DNA of 64,000 bases, from NCBI GenBank assembly GCA_965204345.1, contig OZ241981.1, positions 1,472,001 through 1,536,000 of the forward strand, given 5' to 3'. The position numbers were made by a program, and so were the translations under genes. The notes below the pieces were generated by a model that did not search any database, was not told the origin of the DNA, and saw only the letters and a program-made list of their open reading frames with translations. Origin of the DNA: Nitrosopumilus sp. Lineage in GTDB: Archaea > Thermoproteota > Nitrososphaeria > Nitrososphaerales > Nitrosopumilaceae. Shown here piece after piece: positions 2,092-56,098 of the stretch (its first letter is position 1; the number at the start of each line of letters is the position of its first letter).

Positions 2092-3051
2092 CTAAATTTT
2101 GATATATTTTCTAGTCTTGAAAACTATGATTGCAGGAATTCCCACATACATTCCCAGATTCATCACAATAACTCCAATTCCATATGATAGCACTTCTGAG
2201 TCAGATTCTGCATATTGCATTAGATATAGGGTAGACAACATTGGAGTAATTGAGAATTTAACCATTTCCTTGAATGCTGGATTTTCTCTTTGCATGTCTG
2301 CAATGTATGGTGAGAATGAATAGTACAATTGGTTAAATCCACTCATAAATGAAACACCCGAATCTGTCTTCATTAGTTGATTATCTCTGATTTCTCTGAG
2401 TAACTGAACTTGTGGTGCCATCTCTGAATCATATGCAGCTGTTGCAATCAAACAACCTCCTCCTCCTCTTCCTCCAGAATTATCTATAATCATACACATT
2501 CCATCAACAAGATCTGTTCCTTTTCCACATTCTCCAACTTCCGGTTCTCCAACTTTTGGTTTCATAACTTCCCGTTCCATAACTTCCGATTCCATAACTT
2601 CTGGTACTTCCGGTTCTCCAACTTTTGGTTCTTCCAACCCTACTGCATGATAAATTGAGTCATATTCTGGATATGTATTATCAAACCACTCTTTGTAGAT
2701 ATCCTCCGTATTGTATCTGTCAACATAGCTCTGTGCGTCTTTGGATTCATCTACAAACGGTGCAGGAACCGGCAGTGGTTCTTCCAACCCTACTGCATGA
2801 TAAATTGAGTCATATTCCGGATATGTATTATCAAACCACTCTTTGTAGATATCCTCCGTATTGTATCTGTCAACATAGCTCTGTGCGTCTTTGGATTCAT
2901 CTACAAACGGTGCAATTCCTAACTCTTTTGCTTCTGCTGCTACATTGGCATAATTTGGAACCACCATTAATACAAGTAATGAACATACTGCGAATAGTCC
3001 TAATTTTGTTCTCATAATGATGATTGTACGATTTAGACTTTTAAAAAACAC
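2092..3051 (-). CDS. CFI-box-CTERM domain surface protein with a duplicated ~46-aa domain
   Basis: Signal peptide, then GGGGCLIATAAYDSEMAPQVQLLREIRDN...FNQLYYSFSP and a C-terminal TM helix, as in thaumarchaeal CFI-box proteins. Real start is probably the ATG at ~3015-3018. Confidence 0.85.
   Translation of the reverse strand: MFFKSLNRTIIIMRTKLGLFAVCSLLVLMVVPNYANVAAEAKELGIAPFVDESKDAQSYVDRYNTEDIYKEWFDNTYPEYDSIYHAVGLEEPLPVPAPFVDESKDAQSYVDRYNTEDIYKEWFDNTYPEYDSIYHAVGLEEPKVGEPEVPEVMESEVMEREVMKPKVGEPEVGECGKGTDLVDGMCMIIDNSGGRGGGGCLIATAAYDSEMAPQVQLLREIRDNQLMKTDSGVSFMSGFNQLYYSFSPYIADMQRENPAFKEMVKFSITPMLSTLYLMQYAESDSEVLSYGIGVIVMNLGMYVGIPAIIVFKTRKYIKI
2626..2914. repeat. Near-identical 139-bp direct repeat (period 150) inside the CFI-box gene
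   Basis: 2626-2764 and 2776-2914 differ at one position seen (catattctgg/catattccgg). Encodes APFVDESKDAQSYVDRYNTEDIYKEWFDNTYPEYDSIYHAVGLEEP twice. Confidence 0.95.
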
Positions 3052-3514: not shown

Positions 3515-3845
3515 TTATAATTTTGTAGTCTTTGTTGATTATTAATTTAGATGGTTTACTCTGCTTTCTCATCTATTTTTATAATGCCAAACATCTGCCT
3601 TTAGTATTTGTGCATTGTGCAAACTATCCAGTCTTGGGAATTTCTATTTGGGAATAGGTAACTGTCTTCTGTTCTCTACAATCTTTTCTGAGAACAACAA
3701 GTGAAAAACAATAATTCCAAATGCCTTGCTACACAAGGCTACAAAATGAGATCTCAAAGAGGCTACAGAATCCCATAATTTGGGAACTGTCAAACTATAT
3801 TTTTAAATAAAAATAAAAAAATAATTCCAACTAGTGTTAGAAAGA

Positions 3846-4586
3846 TTATTTCATTCGTACAATGTCAATCTTGACTGCTGGGTTACCCCATGCATGAACA
3901 CTTTTCAGTAAATCATTATCACCCATTATGCCTGGATGTGGAATGACTACTCCACCCTCTGCAATTGCGTCATTACTTGCACCTGTTCCTTCATCACCAT
4001 TATCTGAAGAAATTCCAATAGCTCCTTGACAGGGAGGAACCAAGTCTGCAAAGTTTTCTGTATTCATTTCAGTTCTTGCATCATATGCTTTTGCGTAAAC
4101 TGTTTTTTGGTTAATTGGAAGTCTGATTGTATCAGCTCCTGCAAAACCATCATTTGTACAAACCAACATGCTTGCAAATGAAAGATATCTCATGTTACCC
4201 TCAGATGACACGATAAACGTCTCTGAATGACTCAAGCCTGTATTTCCAGGATCATTTGCTGGAACTAGAGGAGCTTCACCTTGAACAATACTCAAAACAC
4301 CTGATTTATCTTGGAGCATTTTGACTAGCGGTTCTGAATTTCCGTTTTCAACCAACTGCTGAACGTTATCACTTGCCATCTCACCTACTGTAAAAAATCC
4401 CGCATTCATAGAATGTGTAACTAGCAATGGTGGAGTGATTGGTTGTCCTGGTGTGAGATTTGTAATTGTAACCTCATACATCTTTGTTTTTGCAGCACTA
4501 GACTCGGGTATTCCTGATACACTTACAACAGCTAACATTGCAACTATTGCAGTTATTGCAAGAACACTTGTCTGCTTTGTTTTCAT
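3846..4586 (-). CDS. Secreted spondin_N domain protein
   Basis: Signal peptide; YEVTITNLTPGQPITPPLLVTH, LVENGNSEPL, SFASMLVCTNDGFAG, YDARTEMN are characteristic of prokaryotic spondin_N proteins. Confidence 0.85.
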   Translation of the reverse strand: MKTKQTSVLAITAIVAMLAVVSVSGIPESSAAKTKMYEVTITNLTPGQPITPPLLVTHSMNAGFFTVGEMASDNVQQLVENGNSEPLVKMLQDKSGVLSIVQGEAPLVPANDPGNTGLSHSETFIVSSEGNMRYLSFASMLVCTNDGFAGADTIRLPINQKTVYAKAYDARTEMNTENFADLVPPCQGAIGISSDNGDEGTGASNDAIAEGGVVIPHPGIMGDNDLLKSVHAWGNPAVKIDIVRMK

Positions 4587-4624
4587 CAAGATTATGACCC
4601 TGAAAAATCACCTTAAGTGTTTGC

Positions 4625-4642
4625 CCACTTTATACCCCAATC
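4625..4642 (-). promoter_or_regulatory. Shared upstream motif, copy 1 (spondin gene)
   Basis: Minus-strand GATTGGGGTATAAAGTGG, 56-39 nt upstream of ATG 4586 and just upstream of a TTAA TATA-like element. Confidence 0.65.
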
Positions 4643-4651
4643 CTACCTGAG

Positions 4652-4954
4652 TTATCTTCTGGTAATCCAGACAAGAACTGATAATCCAATTGTTTGAATT
4701 ACATTTATTGCAAATAAATAATGTGACACCATGTCAGCTGATACCATTAATGCTTTATTGTGCATGTATAGCGTAGGCCAGAATAAAATAATCACAATAT
4801 TTTGTAGCATTAATAGTGATGCAACCAATACTAGGCCTGAAGTATAGTATGATCTAATGACTCTCATGTTTTGGACATAGGTTCCAATCACAACTAGTAG
4901 TAATGCAATGTTGAGAAATGCAGATATAACTGCAGCGAGCATAAAGTCTATCAT
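4652..4954 (-). CDS. Small three-TM membrane protein, partner of the adjacent wHTH regulator
   Basis: Three hydrophobic segments; directly downstream of the ArsR-like gene. Confidence 0.7.
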   Translation of the reverse strand: MIDFMLAAVISAFLNIALLLVVIGTYVQNMRVIRSYYTSGLVLVASLLMLQNIVIILFWPTLYMHNKALMVSADMVSHYLFAINVIQTIGLSVLVWITRR

Positions 4955-4981
4955 GACTCTTTGCCTCTAAAATTCATTAAT

Positions 4982-5257
4982 TTACTTTGTTCCAATTTTT
5001 TTCATAATCTCTTCTAAAACATTTTGATTCTCTTTCATAATCTGTGTTAATTCATATTCTGCTGCATACTCTTTTTCAGCTTTGATTACAAGCTCATTTT
5101 TTGCAAGAATTTTTACATGATGGATTACTGTTTTATGATCTAAATTCAACACAGTTGCAATTTTGTTTGCATTCATTGGGGTATCCTTGACTAGATTGAG
5201 GATTTTTGCTCTGTTTATGCCTCCTCGGGTGCCTGCAATTATAGACCAAAGTATCAT
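4982..5257 (-). CDS. ArsR-type winged helix-turn-helix transcriptional regulator (start uncertain, 5257 up to ~5310)
   Basis: LWSIIAGTRGGINRAKILNLVKDTPMNANKIATVLNLDHKTVIHHVKILAKNELV matches the archaeal GTRGG-type wHTH family. Confidence 0.85.
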   Translation of the reverse strand: MILWSIIAGTRGGINRAKILNLVKDTPMNANKIATVLNLDHKTVIHHVKILAKNELVIKAEKEYAAEYELTQIMKENQNVLEEIMKKIGTK

Positions 5258-5435
5258 TTTGAATCTGGGATTTGGATTTGTTTCTCCATCTGTTTGCCCT
5301 GAGAATGAAAATAATCCCTTTGGAATAATATCTGAAAGTAAGAATGTTGGTAGGGTAATTGTTGCTGCAAACACTGATTTTTCAGATTTTGTGTAGGATA
5401 TAAGAAATTCCTTTTGAGGTTTTTTAGTAGTGTTT

Positions 5436-6482
5436 CTAAGGCGATAACTCTGCGCTTCCAAATAATACACCAAATGCTTTGCACCAAATCAGGACTTTGT
5501 TGTATTTGGTCAAGTCGGTGTCATCTGGAATTTCATAGTTCTGATTTCCATTATTTGCCTTGAGTTCTCCCAAGTTAACAAATTCTGATGCATTATCATC
5601 TGTTGATAAATAGACATACAAGTCTGGACCATTTGTTGATTTGAAATTCTCTAGTCTTAATACAGTACTTGTGTCTTCTAATGGTATTGTGTATGCATCT
5701 CCTTGTGCATCATGAACTCCATCACCAACACCGATGAATTTTCCTGTATAAGATATTGGAATGGTTTCTTTTACCATTTCATCTTCCATCATCATCATCT
5801 CCTCTTCCTCCATCATCATAGCATCATCTTCCATCATCATCATCTCCTCTTCCTCCATCATCATAGCATCATCTTCCATCATCATCATCTCCTCTTCCTC
5901 CATCATCATAGCATCATCTTCCATCATCATCATCTCCTCTTCCTCCATCATCATAGCATCATCTTCCATCATCATAGCATCATCTTCCATCATCATCATC
6001 TCCTCTTCCTCCATCATCATAGCATCATCTTCCATCATCATCATCTCCTCTTCCTCCATCATCATAGCATCATCTTCCATCATCATCATCTCCTCTTCCT
6101 CCATCATCATAGCATCATCTTCCATCATCATCATCTCCTCTTCCTCCATCATCATAGCATCATCTTCCATCATCATAGCATCATCTTCCATCATCATCAT
6201 CTCCTCTTCCTCCATCATCATAGCATCATCTTCCATCATCATCATCTCCTCTTCCTCCATCATCATAGCATCATCTTCCATCATCATCATCTCCTCTTCC
6301 TCCATCATCATAGCATCATCTTCCATCATCATCATCTCCTCTTCCTCCATCGTAGATTGACTAATTGCACCAGCTGGCAATGCCTCATCGATAGTTGATT
6401 CTGTAAAGTATGGGGATAATGCAAATGCTGAAACTGTTCCAACTATAATTACTGCAATAGCAATTCCAACTAGCTTATTCAT
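5436..6482 (-). CDS. Membrane-anchored DM13 domain protein with a long Met/Glu/Asp-rich repeat linker
   Basis: N-terminal TM/signal, P-Y-F-x(5)-DEALP, then the repeat, then DM13 (GKFIGVGDGVHDAQG, LRLENFKSTNGPDLYVYLS, LGELKANNGNQNYEIP, VLIWCKAFGVLFGSAEL). Confidence 0.92.
   Translation of the reverse strand: MNKLVGIAIAVIIVGTVSAFALSPYFTESTIDEALPAGAISQSTMEEEEMMMMEDDAMMMEEEEMMMMEDDAMMMEEEEMMMMEDDAMMMEEEEMMMMEDDAMMMEDDAMMMEEEEMMMMEDDAMMMEEEEMMMMEDDAMMMEEEEMMMMEDDAMMMEEEEMMMMEDDAMMMEDDAMMMEEEEMMMMEDDAMMMEEEEMMMMEDDAMMMEEEEMMMMEDDAMMMEEEEMMMMEDEMVKETIPISYTGKFIGVGDGVHDAQGDAYTIPLEDTSTVLRLENFKSTNGPDLYVYLSTDDNASEFVNLGELKANNGNQNYEIPDDTDLTKYNKVLIWCKAFGVLFGSAELSP
5775..6350. repeat. Coding higher-order tandem repeat: 45-bp unit A (EEEEMMMMEDDAMMM) and 21-bp unit B (EDDAMMM), arranged A4-B-A4-B-A3-partial A
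   Basis: Read directly from DNA and protein; units appear identical at nucleotide level. Confidence 0.95.
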
Positions 6483-6518
6483 GATTGAATCCTATGTTCT
6501 TGGTATATAGTGCATTTT

Positions 6519-6536
6519 CCACTTTTGACCCCAATC
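6519..6536 (-). promoter_or_regulatory. Shared upstream motif, copy 2 (DM13 gene)
   Basis: Minus-strand GATTGGGGTCAAAAGTGG, 16/18 identical to copy 1, 54-37 nt upstream of ATG 6482, followed by a TATATA box at 6509-6504. Confidence 0.65.
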
Positions 6537-6596
6537 TTTAGACACTAATATGCTTACCAGTAAGGTAATTTAGTGAGGGTTTAATCTCAAAATCAA

Positions 6597-7145
6597 ATGG
6601 AACCATTTGATTCGTTGATTCCTTGGATTACTAATTTTTTAGGTGATCATCTCTATGAAGGTGTATTTTTGGCAGCTTTGCTTGAGACAATAATTCCTCC
6701 TATTCCCACACTAGCGATATTTCCAACTGCTGGATTCTTGGCATCTCAACAAGGAATTATATTAATTGGATTAATACCGATGATTATCTTTGGTGCTAGT
6801 GGTGCTACTGTTGGAAATATTGTAATTTATCTAATAGCACTAAAACTAGGACGGGTTGTTTTACTTCGCTATCTGAAATATGTCAGGATTTCAGAAAAAA
6901 AATTAGGCAGAGTCGAAGTTTGGTTTGAAAAATATGGTGACAAGGCAGTATTTTTGGGAAGGATGGTTCCTGTAATGCGAGAGATGATTTCAGTTCCTGC
7001 AGGATTATTAAAAATGAAATTTCTAAAATTTGTATTATACACATTTGCGGGTTCATGTGTTTGGGCTACTGCAACTATTTTGGCAGGATATTATTTTGGT
7101 GAAGCAATAGGTCTTACCACTAGCGCTTTGGAATCATTACCTTAA
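6597..7145 (+). CDS. DedA family membrane protein
   Basis: LETIIPPIP, AGFLA, WFEKYGDKAVFLGRMVPVMREMISVPAG. Confidence 0.92.
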   Translation: MEPFDSLIPWITNFLGDHLYEGVFLAALLETIIPPIPTLAIFPTAGFLASQQGIILIGLIPMIIFGASGATVGNIVIYLIALKLGRVVLLRYLKYVRISEKKLGRVEVWFEKYGDKAVFLGRMVPVMREMISVPAGLLKMKFLKFVLYTFAGSCVWATATILAGYYFGEAIGLTTSALESLP

Positions 7146-7362
7146 ATATCATAAACACCATATGTACATTAACGTCCTATGCTTAGCTGGATGGTTTCCA
7201 GGGATTCTTCAATACTCCCCTAATAGTTGAAGAATTTCTGTTTATTTTTTTATCTAGTATCTGAAATTTTGCCCTTTGCATTTTTTTATCCTAATTCTTT
7301 AATTCCTTTCTTTGCAGTATAGTCAATATTTCCATGATCCATCCATGATTCATAAAGTCATA

Positions 7363-8154
7363 CTAAAAACTTCCTAGTGTTTTTTGTTTTTTCTCATCCC
7401 AAACCAAGTCTTGCATTCCTAATTGCATCCTTAGTGAATTAGCAGTATCTGCTGCAAATCCTTCCAAGTGATTGTTGGCCATTACCATTGCTAATGGAAT
7501 ATTTTTAATCTCTTTGAGTTTTTTTGCCCAGTTTACGATCAATTCTTTTTTATTTTTTGTAACTTTTCCAAATTCTGAATCTGGAATTGAGCGGTCTCCA
7601 ATCAATCTAACGTAGAGATAATCCGTTGTAATTGGCATTGGATTATTCACTCCTGTAACTTCATTCCATACAAGACAGTGTTTGTTTTGTTTTAGATATG
7701 TTATGGCCTCATCTGAAAACCATGATTGATGTCTTCCCTCAATTGGATATACAAAATCTTTGGGAAGCATATCAAATAGTTCTCCTAGTCTTGGTTTTGC
7801 CTCTTCAAATGATAATGATGGGGGCAATTGCAAAACCAAAGCTGAAATCTTTTCATGAATTGGAACTAGTGATGATAAAAATGAGAAAATTTCTGAATTT
7901 ACTCCATCTAGCCTCTTTTCGTGCGTAATTGTGGATGGAAATTTTGCTGTAAATTTGAAATGCCTTGGTGTATCTGCATTCCACCGCCTAACTATTTCTT
8001 GTGCGGGAATTCTGTAAAATGTGGAATTTATCTCTGTAATACTAAAAAGCTGAGAATAATATTTCAGCCATTGAGAACTCTTTAGATTTTTGGGATAAAA
8101 AGTTCCTGACCATCCCTGATAGCTCCATCCCGTACATCCAATTTTGAATTCCAT
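7363..8154 (-). CDS. DUF72 family protein
   Basis: IGCTGWSY, EINSTFYRIP, ITHEKRL, QLPPS, EGRHQSW, YVRLIG. Confidence 0.92.
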   Translation of the reverse strand: MEFKIGCTGWSYQGWSGTFYPKNLKSSQWLKYYSQLFSITEINSTFYRIPAQEIVRRWNADTPRHFKFTAKFPSTITHEKRLDGVNSEIFSFLSSLVPIHEKISALVLQLPPSLSFEEAKPRLGELFDMLPKDFVYPIEGRHQSWFSDEAITYLKQNKHCLVWNEVTGVNNPMPITTDYLYVRLIGDRSIPDSEFGKVTKNKKELIVNWAKKLKEIKNIPLAMVMANNHLEGFAADTANSLRMQLGMQDLVWDEKKQKTLGSF

Positions 8155-8327
8155 AATGACATTTATTTTTGATTAGAACTTAAAATTCCTATTATTTTGA
8201 TGTCGTAGAATTGCTTAGATTTATGTATTAAGTGATCTTTGAAATTATTTTTTACATCTATTTTTCTTTCCAAAAGATTGGGTCGGTTGGAAAATTGGCC
8301 TAATATCAATATTGAAATTTTTATTCA

Positions 8328-9030
8328 ATGACGAACAAAATAGTTCCAGTCTTATTCATTATGACTGCTCTTATGAGATCTGCTACAGTAGAATCTGTAG
8401 AATTAATTCCAAATGCTGAAGCTCTTTAGCATAAAGGTAACAATATCTGTCTTCTTTGGAGAATCCAAACTGATACTTGGGATAATCCTGATAGTGCAGA
8501 TTTTCTAAGGACTGTAGGTGAGGTTACTAAAGAGCATCTGATGAAAAACTTGAAAATGGACTAGTAGCTGGGTTTGTGGTAAACTGTTCATTTGTTAAAG
8601 TGGATTCTAAGATGAATAAATGATGAAAGAGGATCACATGATGGATAACAGAGTGATCAAATCCAGTCACATGAAAGATGATTTGACTGCTTTTGTAGGC
8701 GATGCTCCATTTGGATGTAAAACTGTTGGAACCTACTTTATGGCAGTTCAAGCAAATGATCAAGTCAAAGTAGTCACAAACATCAAAAGCGTTTCATCAG
8801 GAATGGTTCTTGAAGGATGGCTTGTCGATGTGGATTCTGACTATAAGCTAAGAATTGGCAAAGCAAATCATAATGGAAAACTCTTCTCCTCACAACCAAT
8901 GGCAAATCCTGTATTTATGGTCCCAATTTTGTTAACAGAGGGAGACCAATAGGAGATACAAGCCCTGTGTCACCCGGCATGCCTGTTGGTGGAATCTCAC
9001 TTTTTATCCCCTTTGGACTCTGGTCCAATT
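8328..9030 (+). pseudogene. Degraded secreted protein gene (ORF 8620-8952 is an internal fragment)
   Basis: ATG 8328 gives a signal-like MTNKIVPVLFIMTALM...IPNAEAL then TAG. The later fragment has MMKEDHMM and GMVLEGWLVDVDSDYKL, and a frameshifted PIGDTSPVSPGMPVGG tail follows. The 3' end is approximate. Confidence 0.6.
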
Positions 9031-9062
9031 TCTTATTTTTATTGTATAATGATATATTTTCA

Positions 9063-9079
9063 ATTGGGGTCTGATTTGG
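9063..9079 (+). promoter_or_regulatory. Shared upstream motif, copy 3 (NDH-2 gene)
   Basis: ATTGGGGTCTGATTTGG beginning 56 nt upstream of the first repeated ATG (9119), followed by TTAATTAT at 9089-9096. Confidence 0.55.
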
Positions 9080-9105
9080 GATTTTGGTTAATTATCCGAG
9101 TTCTT

Positions 9106-9171
9106 TAAAACCTAATCAATGACCTTGCTAAAACCTAATCAATGACCTTGCTAAAACCTAATCAATGACCT
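9106..9171 (+). repeat. 23-bp tandem repeat (TAAAACCTAATCAATGACCTTGC) x2.9 spanning the NDH-2 start codon
   Basis: Copies start at 9106, 9129 and 9152; ATGs at 9119, 9142 and 9165. Confidence 0.95.
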
Positions 9172-11003
9172 CATTAGTTGTTAATTTCTCATTAAGAAAA
9201 GAAGTATTTTTTATCACTTTGGGCTCATTGTTTGGAGCCTTTGTCATGTTTATCCCCAATTTTCTCTTGGATGCATTTACAAATTCTGAATTTTACTTGT
9301 TTTGGATAGTAGCCGCTAGGCTTTTTGGTTCTAGTGACTACCTGGTTGGAGTGTTTGTACATTTTGGAGTAGCTACCATTATTGGAATAATTGTTGGGTT
9401 GATACTATACAAAACAAAAATACTCAACATTTCAAAATTAACCAATGGAATAATTTTTGGAGTTTTAGCAGGAACCGTTGTTACTGTTGTTTTTACAATT
9501 CCCGTTCAATATTTTTGGATTCAGCCTATCATGGCAGAACTAAACAATACTCCTGTAGGTAATTTTGTTCTATCAGAAGAATTTCTAATAAAATCATTTT
9601 TGACGCATTTTCTTTGGGGTGGAACCTTGGGAATTTTGGCATCCTTTTTGACTGCAAAAAAAGGAATGAATTACAGATGCCATAAATGTGATATAGAATT
9701 TTCAAAACTTAGCACGTATGAAGAACATTTTCAATACATCCATGTCTCACCTCATCCCCATACACAAAAAATTGTTATCTTAGGTGGCGGTTATGCAGGT
9801 GTAGGCGTATTAGAAAAAATCCAAAAGCAATTTCAAAAAGATGTTGATATTGACATTTCTATTATTTCAGAACATAATTTTTTTCTTCACACTCCAATGC
9901 TGCCAGAACTATCTACTGGAACTATTGAACCACGCCATATTGCTACTCCGATTAGAAATTTCTGCAAACGTGCCAGATTTTATCAAGCCAAAATAATGAG
10001 TGTTGATTTGGACAAAAAATTTGTAACCATTGATAATTCTGGAGGCAAAAAACAGCTAGAGTATGACTATCTGGTCATTGCAACTGGAACTAAAACAGGA
10101 TTTTTTGGAAATGAAAATCTAAAGAAACATTCTCTTACAATTAAGACTTTAGATGATGCTAATGTACTTAGAAATCAAATAATAACTCAATTAGAGTTAG
10201 CTGATCAACAGGAAATCTCAAAACAACCTGAACTTTTGTCTTTTGTTGTAGTTGGTGGTGGATTCTCTGGAGTTGAAACTGCTGGTGAAATCAATGAATT
10301 TATTCGTGAATCTGCTGAGAAATACTATCGAAATATTGAGCCTGATTCTATTCAGATCAGCCTAATTGCAGCACGAGATCATATATTGCCTGAAATTGGA
10401 ACTCTTGGAAAATATGCTGCAAGTTCTTTAGAAAACGCAGGTGTGAATATAATTTACAATACCAAGGTAACTGATGCTAATACCACACATATCTCACTAA
10501 GTGATAATGCTGAATTGTATTATTCCATGTTGATATGGGCAGGCGGCAATGAATCCCAGGACTTTGTACAATCACTTGACGTTGAACATCATAAATCAGG
10601 GAGAATACTAGTTGACAAATATCTTAGGCTGCCAGAATATTCCAATGTATTTGCATTGGGTGACTGTGCATATATTTTAAATTCTAAAAATGAGCCATAT
10701 CCTCCAACTGCACAGCACGCCATAAGAGAGGCAAAGACCGTGTCTAAAAATCTGATTTCATCAATTCGCAACAATGGCAAATTATCAATATTTGATTATT
10801 CATCAAAGGGCTCTATGGCAAAAATTGGAAAACGGGATGGGGTTGCTAGAATGCTTGGAGTTAATCTAACCGGATTTACAGCTTGGTTTGTGTGGAAGCA
10901 ATACTATTTGTCAACTCTTCCCGTAATGGAGAAACGAATTAGAGTCGGTCTTGATTGGTTTGTGGATCTTTTCTTTACTCGTGATATCACTAAACTAAAT
11001 TAA
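9165..11003 (+). CDS. Type II NADH dehydrogenase-like FAD oxidoreductase with an N-terminal membrane domain and C2H2 zinc finger
   Basis: IVILGGGYAG, FVVVGGGFSGVETAGE, VFALGDCA, PPTAQHAIRE; N-terminal ~4 TM helices and CHKC-x12-H-x4-H. Confidence 0.88.
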   Translation: MTSLVVNFSLRKEVFFITLGSLFGAFVMFIPNFLLDAFTNSEFYLFWIVAARLFGSSDYLVGVFVHFGVATIIGIIVGLILYKTKILNISKLTNGIIFGVLAGTVVTVVFTIPVQYFWIQPIMAELNNTPVGNFVLSEEFLIKSFLTHFLWGGTLGILASFLTAKKGMNYRCHKCDIEFSKLSTYEEHFQYIHVSPHPHTQKIVILGGGYAGVGVLEKIQKQFQKDVDIDISIISEHNFFLHTPMLPELSTGTIEPRHIATPIRNFCKRARFYQAKIMSVDLDKKFVTIDNSGGKKQLEYDYLVIATGTKTGFFGNENLKKHSLTIKTLDDANVLRNQIITQLELADQQEISKQPELLSFVVVGGGFSGVETAGEINEFIRESAEKYYRNIEPDSIQISLIAARDHILPEIGTLGKYAASSLENAGVNIIYNTKVTDANTTHISLSDNAELYYSMLIWAGGNESQDFVQSLDVEHHKSGRILVDKYLRLPEYSNVFALGDCAYILNSKNEPYPPTAQHAIREAKTVSKNLISSIRNNGKLSIFDYSSKGSMAKIGKRDGVARMLGVNLTGFTAWFVWKQYYLSTLPVMEKRIRVGLDWFVDLFFTRDITKLN

Positions 11004-11100
11004 TTTCTGCGTGTTTTCATCCTCAGAACAGTATCTGAATCCTTGTAATTGAATCAAAGATGAAATTATTGTTTAAATTAAACAACATGCCAGTTATCTT

Positions 11101-11205
11101 ATGAAACCTCAATCATGTAGAAATTGTGGAAAAGAACTATTTCAAAACCAAAGAACATGTCCTAACTGTGGCAAGGAAACTGGTCACGATGATATTGAAA
11201 ATTAG
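11101..11205 (+). CDS. 34-aa zinc-ribbon microprotein
   Basis: MKPQSCRNCGKELFQNQRTCPNCGKETGHDDIEN, with CxxCG-x8-CPxCG and TTTAAA about 25 nt upstream. Confidence 0.7.
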   Translation: MKPQSCRNCGKELFQNQRTCPNCGKETGHDDIEN

Positions 11206-11530
11206 TTTTTATCGTAGATTATTACTGTGAATTTGTAATTTTCTTTATAGCTAAAGGTGTCTTCTTGATAAAGAAAGACTCCAAATGATACAAATTAAGG
11301 GAATCCATAAAAATCCAGTTAAGACAGATGGATGTGTATTGCAGATTTTGTGATACTTGTTCTACACTTTCGTTATCAGAGGCTTGGATGACAAATGTTG
11401 CTAAGACTTGGCCAAACAGGGGAGGTGCTCCAAATAGAAAAAAATAACACTGTGGATATCACTGAACTAGAGATATCCCATTGGGAATCAATTTTTGTTC
11501 TTAAATGAGTTTAATTCCTATTTTTCCAAG

Positions 11531-11752: not shown

Positions 11753-13420
11753 TCATGCTCTGTTTTTTGATATTGTAGCATTATTGGGATCTAAATCCTC
11801 CCAAGTTACCTCATAACCCATTTTTGATAACAAATCAGCATGACATGGATCAGGAATTTTTTGTGATGATAATATATTACATGCCTCAACAAATTGAGAA
11901 ACTTTGTCAAGTTTATCTGCAATAGAACTAATTTTCTTTTTTGAAATCAGATATGATTCTGCCACTATGTAATCGTCCGGGTAATCTGTAAGAAGAATCT
12001 TTAATGTTGCAGCTTCCGGAAGAGAATTTTCAAGAGCAGTCTGTTTTACTGAAATCAAGTCCGAATTTTTTTCATCTATCTTTATTTTTGTGCGAATCTT
12101 TTCTTCAACTATTTCAGCATCAATCTTTTTCAAATGTTCTAAAATGGGCTTGATTGAGACATCTTTTTGAAAAGTAAATATTCTATCTTTTGAAATTGTT
12201 TTAATCTGTGAGCATGACAATTCAGAGTTTACGGCTACTAGCAAATCAATATTTTTGTGGTTCTTATCAAACAACACCTTCAATTTAGAGGCTTTTCTTT
12301 CAAGATACTCTCTTGTCCAAAAACCTACAATTTCAAAATATACTTTTCTTCCAAATCTTTCAAAAAGAAAATCAGGAATCATTGCTTTGCCATCTGCAAC
12401 CAAGGGATCCGGCTCTCTGGATATTTTCCATCCAAACTTGTCATTTTGATCAAAGTGTTGGTAGAATTTTTTTGCAAATGCTGCTTCTGTAGAACTGTCA
12501 TACACAGAATCATCAATTTTCATGCTCCCTTCATTGTCTTGACGTGTTGAATCTATCACTGAACGAAGAAATTCCTTGGTACTTTCATTTGATAGTTCAA
12601 ATGAATAGATTTTTTGTCCATCTTCTGTTTTTTTCACTATAGAACCATTGATTTTCCACGTTGGCGTGCCTACAATTGAGGGTAGTAGTTTGGCCATTGA
12701 TGTTCCATACCTGTCAGTCATTTTGAAGAGACTAAGCGGTCCCTCTAAAACACATTTTATTGAATCATTATCAGAGTTCTCTTCTGAATTATACTGATAT
12801 TCTAGATTATACATCAAGCCGCATCTTTTGATATTGCGTAAGACCTGCTTCCAGTATATTCCCCCCTTTACATAAAATTCTAATTTTGTACATTTGAAAA
12901 GTAATGTCTGAAATAACGAAAGATTATACCATAAAATTAGATCCTTGGCACTGATGATATCAAATTGTGCTAGTATCAAATTCTCATCTTTATCACTCCA
13001 CATTATAGTCTCAATATTTTCTGATGAAACGTGCATCTGATTTGCAACTTTTTGTATGATGCCTTGTCTCTGCGAATCAGACAAGGCCAAACCTTGTTTT
13101 GATGATTCTTCAAATAACTTTTGTCTTATGAGCATTGGTGTTGCATTGGATGTTGATGTGTTTAACCTCTCGAAAATAGAACGTCTTTCCAATAAAGCGA
13201 AAAATCCGCGTACTAGCTTGTAATCATGCTCTGATTCAAGTTTTCTAATCTTTTGCAGTAAATCTCCTTTATGCCGTTTGTCTTTTTGTGCATTTGTAAA
13301 AAATACAATGAGTTTGTTTGCAAGCTCATAATCAGTGCCATTACCAAAATCACCGCTACAAAATAATGGCGTTATGTTGCCTCGACTAATTTTGGTACGT
13401 AACAGCTCAGATGAAAGCAT
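11753..13420 (-). CDS. DUF790 family / Bax1-like nuclease
   Basis: WYNLSLFQTLLF, EGPLSLFKMTDRYGTSMAKLLP, REPDPL..IPDFLF..YFEIVGFWTREYL; downstream of XPB. Confidence 0.9.
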   Translation of the reverse strand: MLSSELLRTKISRGNITPLFCSGDFGNGTDYELANKLIVFFTNAQKDKRHKGDLLQKIRKLESEHDYKLVRGFFALLERRSIFERLNTSTSNATPMLIRQKLFEESSKQGLALSDSQRQGIIQKVANQMHVSSENIETIMWSDKDENLILAQFDIISAKDLILWYNLSLFQTLLFKCTKLEFYVKGGIYWKQVLRNIKRCGLMYNLEYQYNSEENSDNDSIKCVLEGPLSLFKMTDRYGTSMAKLLPSIVGTPTWKINGSIVKKTEDGQKIYSFELSNESTKEFLRSVIDSTRQDNEGSMKIDDSVYDSSTEAAFAKKFYQHFDQNDKFGWKISREPDPLVADGKAMIPDFLFERFGRKVYFEIVGFWTREYLERKASKLKVLFDKNHKNIDLLVAVNSELSCSQIKTISKDRIFTFQKDVSIKPILEHLKKIDAEIVEEKIRTKIKIDEKNSDLISVKQTALENSLPEAATLKILLTDYPDDYIVAESYLISKKKISSIADKLDKVSQFVEACNILSSQKIPDPCHADLLSKMGYEVTWEDLDPNNATISKNRA

Positions 13421-54446: not shown

Positions 54447-55046
54447 CTATCTGCCCTTTATTGCAAAGTCCTTTCTAAGCGGTGGTAAATCTGCCCAGTC
54501 TTCTGGCAAGAGCAGTCGTCTGTTGTCAGGATGGCCTTCAAAGTACACGCCTAACATCTCAAAAACTTCTCTTTCATGAAATTCTACACTGTAAAATACG
54601 TCCCTAAGGGTTGGAAGTTTGGTGGCATCATTTCCGGGAATTGGATTTGTCTCTCTTTGTGCCCTTGTAGCCAAAACTAGAATCTGTCTTGCTAATGAGG
54701 AATCAGTGTATGATCCTATGTGGTACACAACCTCAATTTCGTTATCTGCAGGATAATCTACACCTGATACAGATTCAACATGGTCATAATTTAGTCCGTC
54801 ACGAATGAACTCGGCAACATCGTGAACATCTTCCCTGCTTACGTTAATTCTGACTCTGTCCTCTTTTACAAATCCCACTTTGACTTTATCACCAAATTTT
54901 TCAACAATTTTCTCAGAAATCCCCTTTTCAAACGCAGGTAACTCCACAGGAGGCGCTTCGGGTTTCTTTGGCGCAGGTTTGGGTGGAGGCGGCGCTTTTA
55001 CTTCAGGCTTGGCATCTGCAGGAGGATTTTCTGTTTTAGTACTCAT
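54447..55046 (-). CDS. nuoC: NADH-quinone oxidoreductase subunit C
   Basis: HEREVFEMLGVYFEGHPDNRRLLLPEDW..PLRKDF. Confidence 0.95.
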   Translation of the reverse strand: MSTKTENPPADAKPEVKAPPPPKPAPKKPEAPPVELPAFEKGISEKIVEKFGDKVKVGFVKEDRVRINVSREDVHDVAEFIRDGLNYDHVESVSGVDYPADNEIEVVYHIGSYTDSSLARQILVLATRAQRETNPIPGNDATKLPTLRDVFYSVEFHEREVFEMLGVYFEGHPDNRRLLLPEDWADLPPLRKDFAIKGR

Positions 55047-55570
55047 TATACAAACTTCCTAGCCTTCATTCTCTTGATCTTTTCTTGCAATAGCATACAT
55101 CCTTGGATGAGAGTTTCAGGTCTAGGTGGGCAACCCGGAACATAGACATCAACTGGAATAACTCCGTCAATTCCCGGAAGTACGTTGTACGAATCAAAAT
55201 ACAAGCCTCCAGTAATTGCACAAGCTCCCATGGCAATCACATACTTTGGTTCTGGCATTTGATCATAAACTAGCCTGAGACGTGGCGCCATTTTTCTTGT
55301 AATGGTTCCCTGAACAACTACAAGATCACATTGTCTAAGTGAACCAAACGCTTCGATGATACCAAATCTTTCAACATCATATCGCGGACTAGATGCTGCA
55401 CCAAATTCTACACTGCAGCAAGCTGTTTCAATGTGGACAGGCCAGAGCGACCAAATTCTACCCCAGTTAATGGCATAGCCCAATGGTTTATCAATTGCTT
55501 TTTCTAAAATGTCTCCTAGCTTTCCTACAAAGACATTTGCATTTTCTGGTGTTACCAAATCTTTGAGCAA
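55046..55570 (-). CDS. nuoB: NADH-quinone oxidoreductase subunit B
   Basis: TACCSVE, QMPEPKYVIAMGAC, VPGCPPRPE. Confidence 0.96.
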   Translation of the reverse strand: MLKDLVTPENANVFVGKLGDILEKAIDKPLGYAINWGRIWSLWPVHIETACCSVEFGAASSPRYDVERFGIIEAFGSLRQCDLVVVQGTITRKMAPRLRLVYDQMPEPKYVIAMGACAITGGLYFDSYNVLPGIDGVIPVDVYVPGCPPRPETLIQGCMLLQEKIKRMKARKFV

Positions 55571-55610: not shown

Positions 55611-55985
55611 CTACCATATCCTTCTTCTCCCTGACTGATATAATGCAAATGCCATTGCACCAAACATAATTGCCAAGAATCCCATCATTGGCAGGGTTGC
55701 CATCTTTGGAATCTCTAGGAGGGCACTCCCCCATGCATACAAGAAAATTGCCATGACATCAAATACGACAAACATGAGAATATACGGGTAATACTGCATC
55801 ATAAAATGGGTCCTTCCCTCTCCTGTTGGGACTTGGCCACATTCCATTGGCAAAAATTTTACCGGATTGCTTCGTTTTCGGGGAGAGATCATTCTTGAAA
55901 TAACCAGAGCTGGAGCCATAGCTACTATACCAAACGCAAACATCAACACAACGGTACTATAATTGCCCGCTAATTCCCCGACCAA
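55611..55985 (-). CDS. nuoA: NADH-quinone oxidoreductase subunit A
   Basis: PMECGQ, QYY..ILMFVVFDV; first gene of the operon. Confidence 0.93.
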   Translation of the reverse strand: MVGELAGNYSTVVLMFAFGIVAMAPALVISRMISPRKRSNPVKFLPMECGQVPTGEGRTHFMMQYYPYILMFVVFDVMAIFLYAWGSALLEIPKMATLPMMGFLAIMFGAMAFALYQSGRRRIW

Positions 55986-56098
55986 TTTAGCTTTTCACCC
56001 TAATTTTTGTATAAAAAGGTATGTTTCGTTTTTAGATCAAAATCTGAAAAAAATCATTTTTGAAAAGGACTTAATAGGATAACATCAGCAATGCGATC

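Follow-up and report, generated by a model that had tools for sequence, protein, structure and literature searches.

A conserved promoter element common to spondin and DM13 genes of Nitrosopumilus, with a neighboring ArsR-fold protein as its candidate reader

What signal is shared by two envelope-protein genes that flank a small regulator operon in Nitrosopumilus sp., and which protein might read it? The locus was analyzed within a 64-kb stretch of contig OZ241981.1 (positions 1,472,001 to 1,536,000; the window), which is AT-rich (37% G+C) and whose closest protein relatives point to a Nitrosopumilus-like archaeon. Its core genes are all on the minus strand: a DM13-domain protein gene preceded by a short motif and a TATA box; a winged helix-turn-helix (wHTH) protein gene with its own TATA box, followed by a gene for a small protein with three transmembrane segments (3-TM); and a spondin_N-domain protein gene, again preceded by the motif and by a TATA-like box. 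The initial annotation described the motif as ATTGGGGT-N6-TGG, placed copies ahead of spondin, DM13, an NDH-2-type flavoprotein and a decayed gene, and proposed that the wHTH protein co-activates an extracytoplasmic metal/redox module of DM13, spondin and the flavoprotein. The four words were all found in the sequence where it had placed them (Table 1). We found the motif to be a real cis-element, conserved and highly specific, that the spondin and DM13 genes have in common. A local regulon of these two genes is well supported, whereas its assignment to the embedded wHTH protein is plausible but unproven.

We aligned 21 spondin orthologues and carried out a profile search of genome contigs, which yielded 57 loci, 23 of them thaumarchaeal (L001-L020 and L024-L026). 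A conserved form of the motif, AAGATTGGGG-N3-AAA-N-TGG, located directly 5' of the TFB recognition element (BRE) and TATA box, was present in 16 of the 23 spondin promoters and in 11 of the 12 DM13 promoters that could be read; conservation ahead of orthologues, which had been set as a test of the motif, was thus observed. Among the spondin promoters, 15 of 23 had an element of at least 22.9 bits, L010 had a spacer one base shorter, and seven lacked the element (L013, L014, L015, L017, L018, L025 and L026). DM13 orthologues occurred in 15 loci, in three of which (L004, L011 and L019) the upstream DNA was cut by the contig end. Variants in these promoters were one changed base of the G-run (L003 and L008) and a shorter spacer (L024), and the only readable DM13 promoter without the element was that of L018. 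In an ungapped comparison of 15 spondin and 11 DM13 promoters, all with distinct sequences (loci lacking the motif were omitted, as were L010, L012 and L024 on account of indels or variant words), GATTGGGG, AAA and TGG showed major-allele frequencies of 0.97-1.00, and the corresponding values were 0.45-0.73 for the spacer and 0.66-0.76 for the stretch between TATA and ATG. The consensus sequences of spondin and DM13 promoters agreed only across the motif; therefore, the element is not a by-product of a duplicated promoter. A location just upstream of BRE/TATA, as originally described, was also confirmed: at the spondin and DM13 promoters of all species compared, the motif ended 8-10 nucleotides (nt) before the TATA-like box.

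Specificity was examined with a 21-nt matrix trained on 24 sites, all from other genomes. In the window and the 23 loci (432,594 bp, both strands), it detected 28 sites of 22.9-35.0 bits, every one of them ahead of a spondin or DM13 orthologue, and outside these sites no score exceeded 15.4 bits. In the window itself (127,960 positions), the DM13 copy ranked first (33.5-35.7 bits) and the spondin copy second (28.6-28.8 bits). The exact pattern ATTGGGGT-N6-TGG occurred three times in 64 kb versus 0.03 expected, and none of 100 shuffles reached this number (shuffle maximum 1); the three copies are all intergenic, fall within 4.5 kb and lie 8-10 nt 5' of a TATA-like box. However, the 8-mer ATTGGGGT by itself was not enriched in the window (5 versus 2.4 expected; 10 of 100 shuffles reached 5), and the long pattern with two mismatches was at background (19 versus 17.4 expected). 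Could the element still reflect chance or phylogenetic inertia, with no function? The lack of enrichment of the 8-mer and the relatedness of the genomes would be in line with this idea, but it is already contradicted by the data and its probability is negligible. In addition to the excess of exact copies, the motif columns are invariant while neighboring intergenic columns vary and the spondin proteins of Nitrosopumilus are only 65-86% identical, and at least nine genomes each have the same word in two promoters that are not homologous.

Several other words were considered and rejected. A one-mismatch match at 55451-55467 falls within the open reading frame (ORF) 55046-55570, and TTGGGGTGGAACCTTGG at 9614 is located within the NDH-2 ORF. 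A copy of ATTGGGGT at 5175-5182 (plus strand), antisense in the wHTH gene, is kept in orthologues; it encodes an invariant T-P-M-N-A and is probably a coincidence. A weak motif-like word, AAAATTAGGGTGAAAAGCTAA (8.2 bits; 55944-56010, minus strand), approximately 64 nt ahead of ORF 55611-55943, is probably due to chance because its TATA spacing is unlike that of the true sites. Separately, an inverted GATTGGGGA was observed in L013 (9925-9945), approximately 60 nt 5' of the ATG in a distant spondin promoter that has no forward motif. An Rfam search of positions 3600-11400 detected no family at the gathering score, and an RNA element is not indicated.

These features led us to regard AAGATTGGGG-N3-AAA-N-TGG as a predicted transcription-factor binding site. 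The element has no dyad symmetry, its two G-rich halves are approximately one helical turn apart, and the whole site lies 5' of the BRE, with the 3' TGG ending 2-3 nt from the A-rich BRE. Promoters of the window generally have TTTATA-type boxes approximately 25-30 nt ahead of the ATG, a geometry typical of leaderless mRNAs. Several TFB paralogues are encoded in Nitrosopumilus. The element might be viewed as a basal promoter-class signal, i.e. an extended BRE for one TFB paralogue, given that the TGG half abuts the BRE and that (A/T)TTGG or AGTGG occurs 7-9 nt before TATA in distant spondin promoters that lack GATTGGGG (L013, L014, L015, L017 and L018). However, GATTGGGG is located 20-27 nt 5' of the TATA box, too far away for TFB-BRE contacts, and only two promoter families carry the element in 432 kb. 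Among the 55 upstream regions of window ORFs that were listed, an intergenic TGG at the motif's TATA offset was seen only for spondin and DM13; most other TGG matches near -40 fall within upstream coding sequence, and TGG near -40 was not found as a generic feature of the window's other promoters. We consider a basal signal of this kind very improbable.

Table 1. Positions of the promoter elements and genes discussed in the text (window coordinates)
Feature	Position	Strand	Basis or remark
Motif copy 1, spondin promoter upstream element	4642-4625	-	GATTGGGGTATAAAGTGG; exact pattern match
Motif copy 2, DM13 promoter upstream element	6536-6519	-	GATTGGGGTCAAAAGTGG; exact match; in the divergent DM13/DedA intergenic region
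Weak motif copy ahead of NDH-2	9062-9079	+	AATTGGGGTCTGATTTGG; exact match to the pattern of the initial annotation
Degenerate motif copy ahead of decayed gene	8276-8290	+	GATTGGGTCGGTTGG; spacer 3 nt shorter than in the others
Spondin_N-domain protein, target gene 1	3846..4586	-	246 amino acids, secreted or anchored; Pfam and NCBIfam
TATA-like box of spondin promoter	4610..4617	-	CTTAAGGT; 23 nt ahead of ATG 4586, leaderless geometry
3-TM membrane protein, second operon gene, candidate signal transducer	4652..4954	-	100 amino acids; three hydrophobic segments
ArsR/SmtB-fold wHTH protein	4982..5374	-	130 amino acids, GTG start, 31-residue hydrophobic N-terminal tail; Pfam HTH_5
BRE/TATA of the wHTH-3-TM operon	5398..5415	-	AAAAGGAATTTCTTATAT; 23 nt ahead of GTG 5374
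Membrane-anchored DM13-domain protein, target gene 2	5436..6482	-	Pfam DM13, 73.9 bits (cut-off 25)
TATA box of DM13 promoter	6503..6510	-	CTATATAC; 20 nt ahead of ATG 6482
DedA/VTT membrane protein, divergent from DM13	6597..7145	+	Pfam VTT_dom, 77.5 bits
Decayed gene	8328..8952	+	33-codon signal-peptide-like ORF to TAG 8427, then 110-amino-acid ORF 8620-8952 in a different frame
Perfect 23-bp tandem repeat, 2.9 copies, over NDH-2 start	9106..9171	+	Tandem Repeats Finder, 100% matches
NDH-2-type flavoprotein, doubtful member	9165..11003	+	612 amino acids; N-terminal membrane domain, C2H2-like segment

By position and by analogy, the wHTH protein with its 3-TM partner is the most economical candidate for the regulator. 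The wHTH gene had been placed at 4982-5257, which is too short. We assigned its start to GTG 5374 because the sequence 5' of ATG 5257 shows coding-type conservation with in-frame indels only, a GTG, TTG or ATG start codon is kept at this position in orthologues, homologues annotated at NCBI have 130 amino acids, and a CAAAAGGAATTTTTTATA block, kept in 14 of 15 aligned sequences, is located 23 nt upstream. The protein matched Pfam HTH_5 (28.2 bits; cut-off 22). In the AlphaFold2 model, the core (residues 36-127, pLDDT 86-96) showed the winged-helix order alpha1-alpha2-alpha3-alphaR-beta1-beta2-alpha5 (helices 36-46, 52-64, 69-76 and 80-92, strands 96-100 and 105-109, and helix 117-127). Top PDB matches were CzrA, SmtB, HlyU and CadC (E ~1e-4 for the first three; target-normalised template-modelling scores 0.57-0.72), and the recognition-helix stretch DHKTVxHHVKIL was nearly invariant. 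Canonical metal ligands of ArsR/SmtB proteins are Cys in alpha3 or at the N-terminus, or Asp/His in alpha5. The window protein has no Cys, its only His residues are at positions 80, 85 and 86, and its last helix contains neither His nor Asp; thus, it lacks the ligand set of the metalloregulator subfamily and is unlikely to be a metal sensor itself. Its match to the metalloregulator family NF033788 was also below threshold (27.4 bits versus a cut-off of 55).

The 3-TM gene is on the same strand and is separated from the wHTH stop codon by a 27-nt gap with a GAGG word, an arrangement kept in 14 loci; because of this gap and word, the two genes look like a single operon. Precomputed annotation assigned PF26119 to 120 of 120 3-TM homologues among the matches listed. 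Only 40 cluster representatives at E <= 1e-3 were found among 1.84 billion proteins, all of 57-166 amino acids and unfused. In a Pfam search at E <= 10, 23 of 28 family members had a weak match to DUF7548 (best E 0.0021). The second loop, predicted to face outward by the positive-inside rule, has the consensus YMDDKALMMSADMVSHY, and most of its positions are kept in 24-28 of the 28 sequences. The window protein itself deviates at three nearly invariant positions of this presumed outer loop, with H65, N66 and V71 in place of the D, D and M found in 25-27 of 28 relatives. Complex prediction with the wHTH and 3-TM alignments gave a score of 0.00 (mark 0.32), which speaks neither for nor against binding.

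It is possible, then, that the wHTH protein binds the element at the DM13 and spondin promoters and thereby couples the two genes. SdpI of Bacillus subtilis sequesters the ArsR-like SdpR at the membrane, and SdpI homologues, some of them with three transmembrane segments, are often encoded 3' of ArsR-like regulators, the three-segment members being thought to represent the regulator-binding half (available part of PMC2910880). By analogy, the 3-TM protein would supply the input, since the wHTH protein has no metal-ligand residues of its own, and might hold the regulator at the membrane or let it go, in the manner of SdpI and SdpR. The trigger would be an extracytoplasmic cue, with copper or a methionine-acting oxidant as candidates. 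A role of the 3-TM protein as sensor or anti-regulator, as suggested by the initial annotation, would fit the ligand-less wHTH protein, its best (although sub-threshold) match to SdpR and the order of regulator gene followed by membrane-protein gene. We favor this coupling of DM13 and spondin through the wHTH protein with 3-TM input, with a confidence only somewhat above even.

Gene order is in line with this proposal, as the order DM13-wHTH-3-TM-spondin, the synteny of which had been suggested as a check, is present in 14 of the 23 thaumarchaeal loci. All 14 loci with the wHTH/3-TM pair have the motif, and the motif fades in precisely those lineages that have no orthologous pair close by (L013-L015, L017, L018, L025 and L026). 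These observations, together with the lack of any further site in 432 kb, argue against a regulator encoded elsewhere, e.g. a global stress or metal regulator, with the operon being a bystander or having another role. Such a distant regulator would account for L009 and L020, in which the motif precedes spondin with no wHTH or 3-TM gene within 10 kb, for the absence of the motif from the wHTH promoter and for the asymmetry of the site, which is unusual for ArsR-type dimers. A paralogous wHTH protein, however, is accompanied by another private operator, located at a paralogous spondin gene, as described below, and on balance we regard a regulator encoded elsewhere as unlikely.

Several points nevertheless weigh against the wHTH protein and its membrane partner as the switch. 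Loci L009 and L020 have been mentioned, and it is adjacency alone that points from the motif to the wHTH protein. The 23 thaumarchaeal loci come from related genomes, and their counts are not independent events. The wHTH promoter has no GATTGGGG motif, so that autoregulation through this element, unlike in SdpR, is not expected. Dimers of the ArsR family are usually repressors that bind inverted repeats, and here no inverted-repeat operator over the promoter was seen, the site being asymmetric and wholly 5' of the BRE. The best NCBIfam match of the wHTH protein, SdpR (NF033789), reached 38.1 bits against a cut-off of 100. None of the 28 3-TM family members matched SdpI in the Pfam search. Residues 1-31 of the wHTH protein are conserved but only moderately hydrophobic (KD19 maximum, median 1.18), with pLDDT below 50.

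A paralogous module in L014, which shares its chromosome record with L010, bears on this question. The module (L014:8249-10000) includes a second spondin gene and a tail-less wHTH protein that is 36% identical over 97 amino acids; it has no 3-TM gene, and a divergent 72-amino-acid ORF has a leader like those of DM13 proteins. A 15-nt word, G[AC]TATCA-N-G[AC]TATCA, occurs there in four copies and nowhere else in the 432 kb: two in the divergent region of wHTH-2, and two flanking the spondin-2 TATA box, one upstream and one directly downstream. Although it is a single locus, it supports a link between wHTH proteins of this family and spondin-type promoters, each promoter type having an operator of its own. 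The same operators, by flanking the TATA box, look like a repression layout in this family, which is a further point against the proposed activation.

Is the wHTH protein an activator or a repressor? Most ArsR/SmtB proteins are repressors. A repressor bound beside the BRE could block TFB or TBP, and membrane capture by the 3-TM protein would then derepress DM13 and spondin. In addition to the family habit, which is shared by the autorepressor SdpR (available part of PMC2910880), this possibility is consistent with the 2-3 nt distance between the TGG and the BRE, with the L014 operators, whose positions on either side of the TATA box of spondin-2 and in the divergent region of wHTH-2 are typical of repression, and with the DM13 TATA box, CTATATAC, which is near consensus (CT(A/T)TATAC is kept in orthologues) and should need no activator. 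The spondin box, on the other hand, is poor: its CTTAAG is kept in orthologues, but CTTAAGG departs from the TTTATA-type boxes seen at other genes of the window. Moreover, there is a single site wholly 5' of the BRE, and nothing motif-like is conserved over the start site; archaeal activators typically bind 5' of the BRE, whereas repressors usually overlap the BRE/TATA or the start site (available part of PMC5512572). Because of the position of the site and the poor spondin box, we lean slightly towards activation, and consider repression a possibility of real weight that we nonetheless do not favor.

With regard to the cue, the initial annotation had suggested copper handling, for which no positive evidence was obtained. 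A Pfam search detected no Cop, multicopper-oxidase or plastocyanin gene in the cluster. In Nitrososphaera viennensis, another ammonia-oxidising archaeon, copper limitation is associated with shared promoter words 35-70 nt before start codons, near an ArsR-family gene (Reyes et al. 2020, available part of PMC7785015). The likeness is of this general kind; the words themselves (TTCSGSMTTTGWACYANT and RATTTAAABATAGATTTAAATAATAAS) and the gene sets differ from those described here, and the terms spondin and DM13 do not occur in the available part of that article. A literature search found nothing joining spondin with Nitrosopumilus or DM13 with ammonia-oxidising archaea, and the motif was undescribed there; a search for work on Nitrosopumilus transcription start sites or promoters likewise gave nothing relevant. 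Scavenging of oxidants by the DM13 methionines is compatible with the data and fits them as well as copper binding does. The comparison here is with the Met-rich peptide that reportedly serves this purpose in perchlorate reducers.

Bacterial spondin genes were also examined, in 24 of 34 bacterial loci (ten short or partial ones were left out) with ORFs called by a crude longest-ORF heuristic. A response regulator and/or histidine kinase was found among the four nearest ORFs in 11 of the 24, the response regulators being of OmpR or sigma-54 type. Thus, the presence of a local sensor-regulator pair next to spondin is seen in both domains. None of the 13 two-component proteins beside bacterial spondin genes reached the cut-offs of the heavy-metal families TIGR01387 and TIGR01386 (best 170.6 versus 279.2 and 170.1 versus 292.55). 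Single bacterial loci contained DM13 two genes away (the actinobacterial L027), MsrA (L037), a CusB-like membrane-fusion protein with an outer-membrane factor (L028) and a CHRD protein (L050).

The spondin protein matched Pfam Spond_N (28.4 bits; cut-off 24) and NCBIfam NF038123 (146.6 bits; cut-off 40), and both it and the DM13 protein start with a hydrophobic signal or anchor segment. The DM13 protein contains Met/Asp/Glu-rich repeats encoded at 5779-6351 (a 45-nt unit in 12.8 copies, with a 201-nt higher-order repeat of 100% identity). This region is hypervariable across orthologues (L001-L024), some of which are nearly repeat-free; full-length orthologue calls had 166-339 amino acids and Met fractions of 0.03-0.15. 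A bolder reading, which we regard as a long shot, is that the operon encodes a membrane-coupled ArsR-type switch unrelated to SdpI. The PF26119 outer loop YMDDKALMMSADMVSHY, which resembles the MMMEDDAMMM repeats of the DM13 target, would read the cue, either Cu(I) or an oxidant converting Met to Met-sulfoxide, and pass the signal to the hydrophobic N-terminal tail of the ligand-less wHTH protein. The latter would activate from its asymmetric site 5' of the BRE, and the output would be an envelope module of marine ammonia oxidisers composed of a length-variable Met-rich sponge on DM13 and the spondin_N protein. In the same speculative scheme, paralogous wHTH copies with private operators might run parallel modules in one cell.

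Among neighboring genes, DedA/VTT adjoins DM13 in 8 of the 23 loci, and the motif is located approximately 26 nt 5' of its TATA-like box in the opposite orientation; DedA/VTT as an extra regulon member is possible but unproven. Synteny of the source locus with the 23 loci stops at DUF72. A secreted protein encoded at 2092-3051 (minus strand) has an internal 50-residue duplication and a C-terminal CLIATAAYDSEMAPQVQLLREIRD segment and showed no Pfam match; tblastn placed several of its paralogues 3' of the archease gene in related loci.

The four-member regulon of the initial annotation stood for spondin and DM13, whereas the NDH-2 fusion and the decayed gene are weak candidates. Neither of them, nor the gene that follows (11753-13420), has a counterpart in any of the 23 thaumarchaeal loci. 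The distances from motif to ATG were as claimed for the ATGs named, i.e. 56 nt (ATG 4586), 54 nt (ATG 6482), 57 nt (ATG 9119) and 52 nt (ATG 8328), but NDH-2 does not start at ATG 9119, which opens a mini-ORF of 8 codons; the 612-amino-acid ORF begins at 9165, 103 nt from the motif. The geometry of the NDH-2 site is right, with TTAATTAT (9088-9095) 8 nt downstream and the first ATG (9119) 21 nt further. Since this geometry points to ATG 9119, a leaderless mRNA would start with two mini-ORFs (MTLLKPNQ*), which are generated by the 23-bp repeat before ATG 9165; the repeat could represent recent damage, control of the upstream-ORF type or a slippage switch. With 11.1 bits versus at least 22.9 for true sites, the NDH-2 site ranked fifth of the 127,960 window positions and was at background over all loci, where many matches were equal; it also has no orthologous promoter in the 23 loci and was rejected as a firm member. 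The protein matched Pyr_redox_2 (146.8 bits) and NDH2_C (35.7 bits) in Pfam. Its residues 1-200 (9165-9770) gave an Atlas lead (0.91-0.92) to stand-alone archaeal DUF6789 + zf-C2H2 membrane proteins, and a fusion of this module with an NDH-2 flavoprotein is, at present, a lead only.

The promoter of the decayed gene aligned with DM13 promoters over approximately 75 nt (GATTGGG-TC..TGGAAAATTGGC..TATA..ATTCAAT..ATG, with the spacer 3 nt shorter) and, judged from this alignment, may derive from a DM13-type promoter copy that has decayed; its motif copy at 8276 is outside the fixed-spacing matrix scoring. The gene itself had no Pfam match and gave an Atlas lead (0.84) to RskA_C-type proteins of Nitrososphaerota, again a lead only.

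Ammonia-oxidising archaea have very few known regulator-operator pairs and are not yet genetically manipulable. A sharply defined operator conserved across species, with two targets and a neighboring candidate regulator, offers a direct and testable entry point. Should the cue turn out to be copper or stress by oxidants, the Met-rich DM13 protein and the hypervariable number of its repeats would serve as markers of that stress in marine nitrifiers.

Among known systems, the wHTH/3-TM pair resembles, on paper, the SdpR-SdpI model. In both cases an ArsR-fold regulator without metal ligands is encoded first and a small membrane protein second in one operon. The resemblance does not extend to family membership: SdpR is the best NCBIfam match yet falls below its cut-off, and the 3-TM protein gives no SdpI match in Pfam. 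The wHTH promoter, with its CAAAAGGAATTTTTTATA block, has no GATTGGGG element for autoregulation, the putative targets are two flanking envelope genes instead of the regulator's own operon, and the host is archaeal with BRE/TATA promoters. With the metalloregulators CzrA, SmtB and CadC, the wHTH protein shares the fold and an HTH_5 match above the cut-off. It differs in having no Cys and no Asp/His cluster in the C-terminal helix, in scoring below the NCBIfam cut-off, in its extra hydrophobic N-terminal tail and in its candidate site, which is asymmetric and not an inverted repeat.

Ptr2, an archaeal activator, is of the Lrp type. ArnR and ArnR1 of Sulfolobus are membrane-bound HTH activators of the archaellum promoter, and ArnR has C-terminal transmembrane helices of its own. 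The wHTH protein has a weak NCBIfam match to ArnR (16.3 bits, E 0.0049), but its hydrophobic segment is N-terminal, short and of doubtful transmembrane character, and the membrane protein is separate. Ptr2, TFB-RF1, EarA and the ara-box factor have the same geometry as the element described here, with a site immediately 5' of BRE/TATA (available part of PMC5512572). A weak BRE or TATA box would make a promoter depend on such an activator; here the spondin box is atypical and the DM13 box near consensus. The spondin and DM13 genes thus form a well-supported small local regulon, which represents the familiar class of local regulator-operator modules rather than a new principle.

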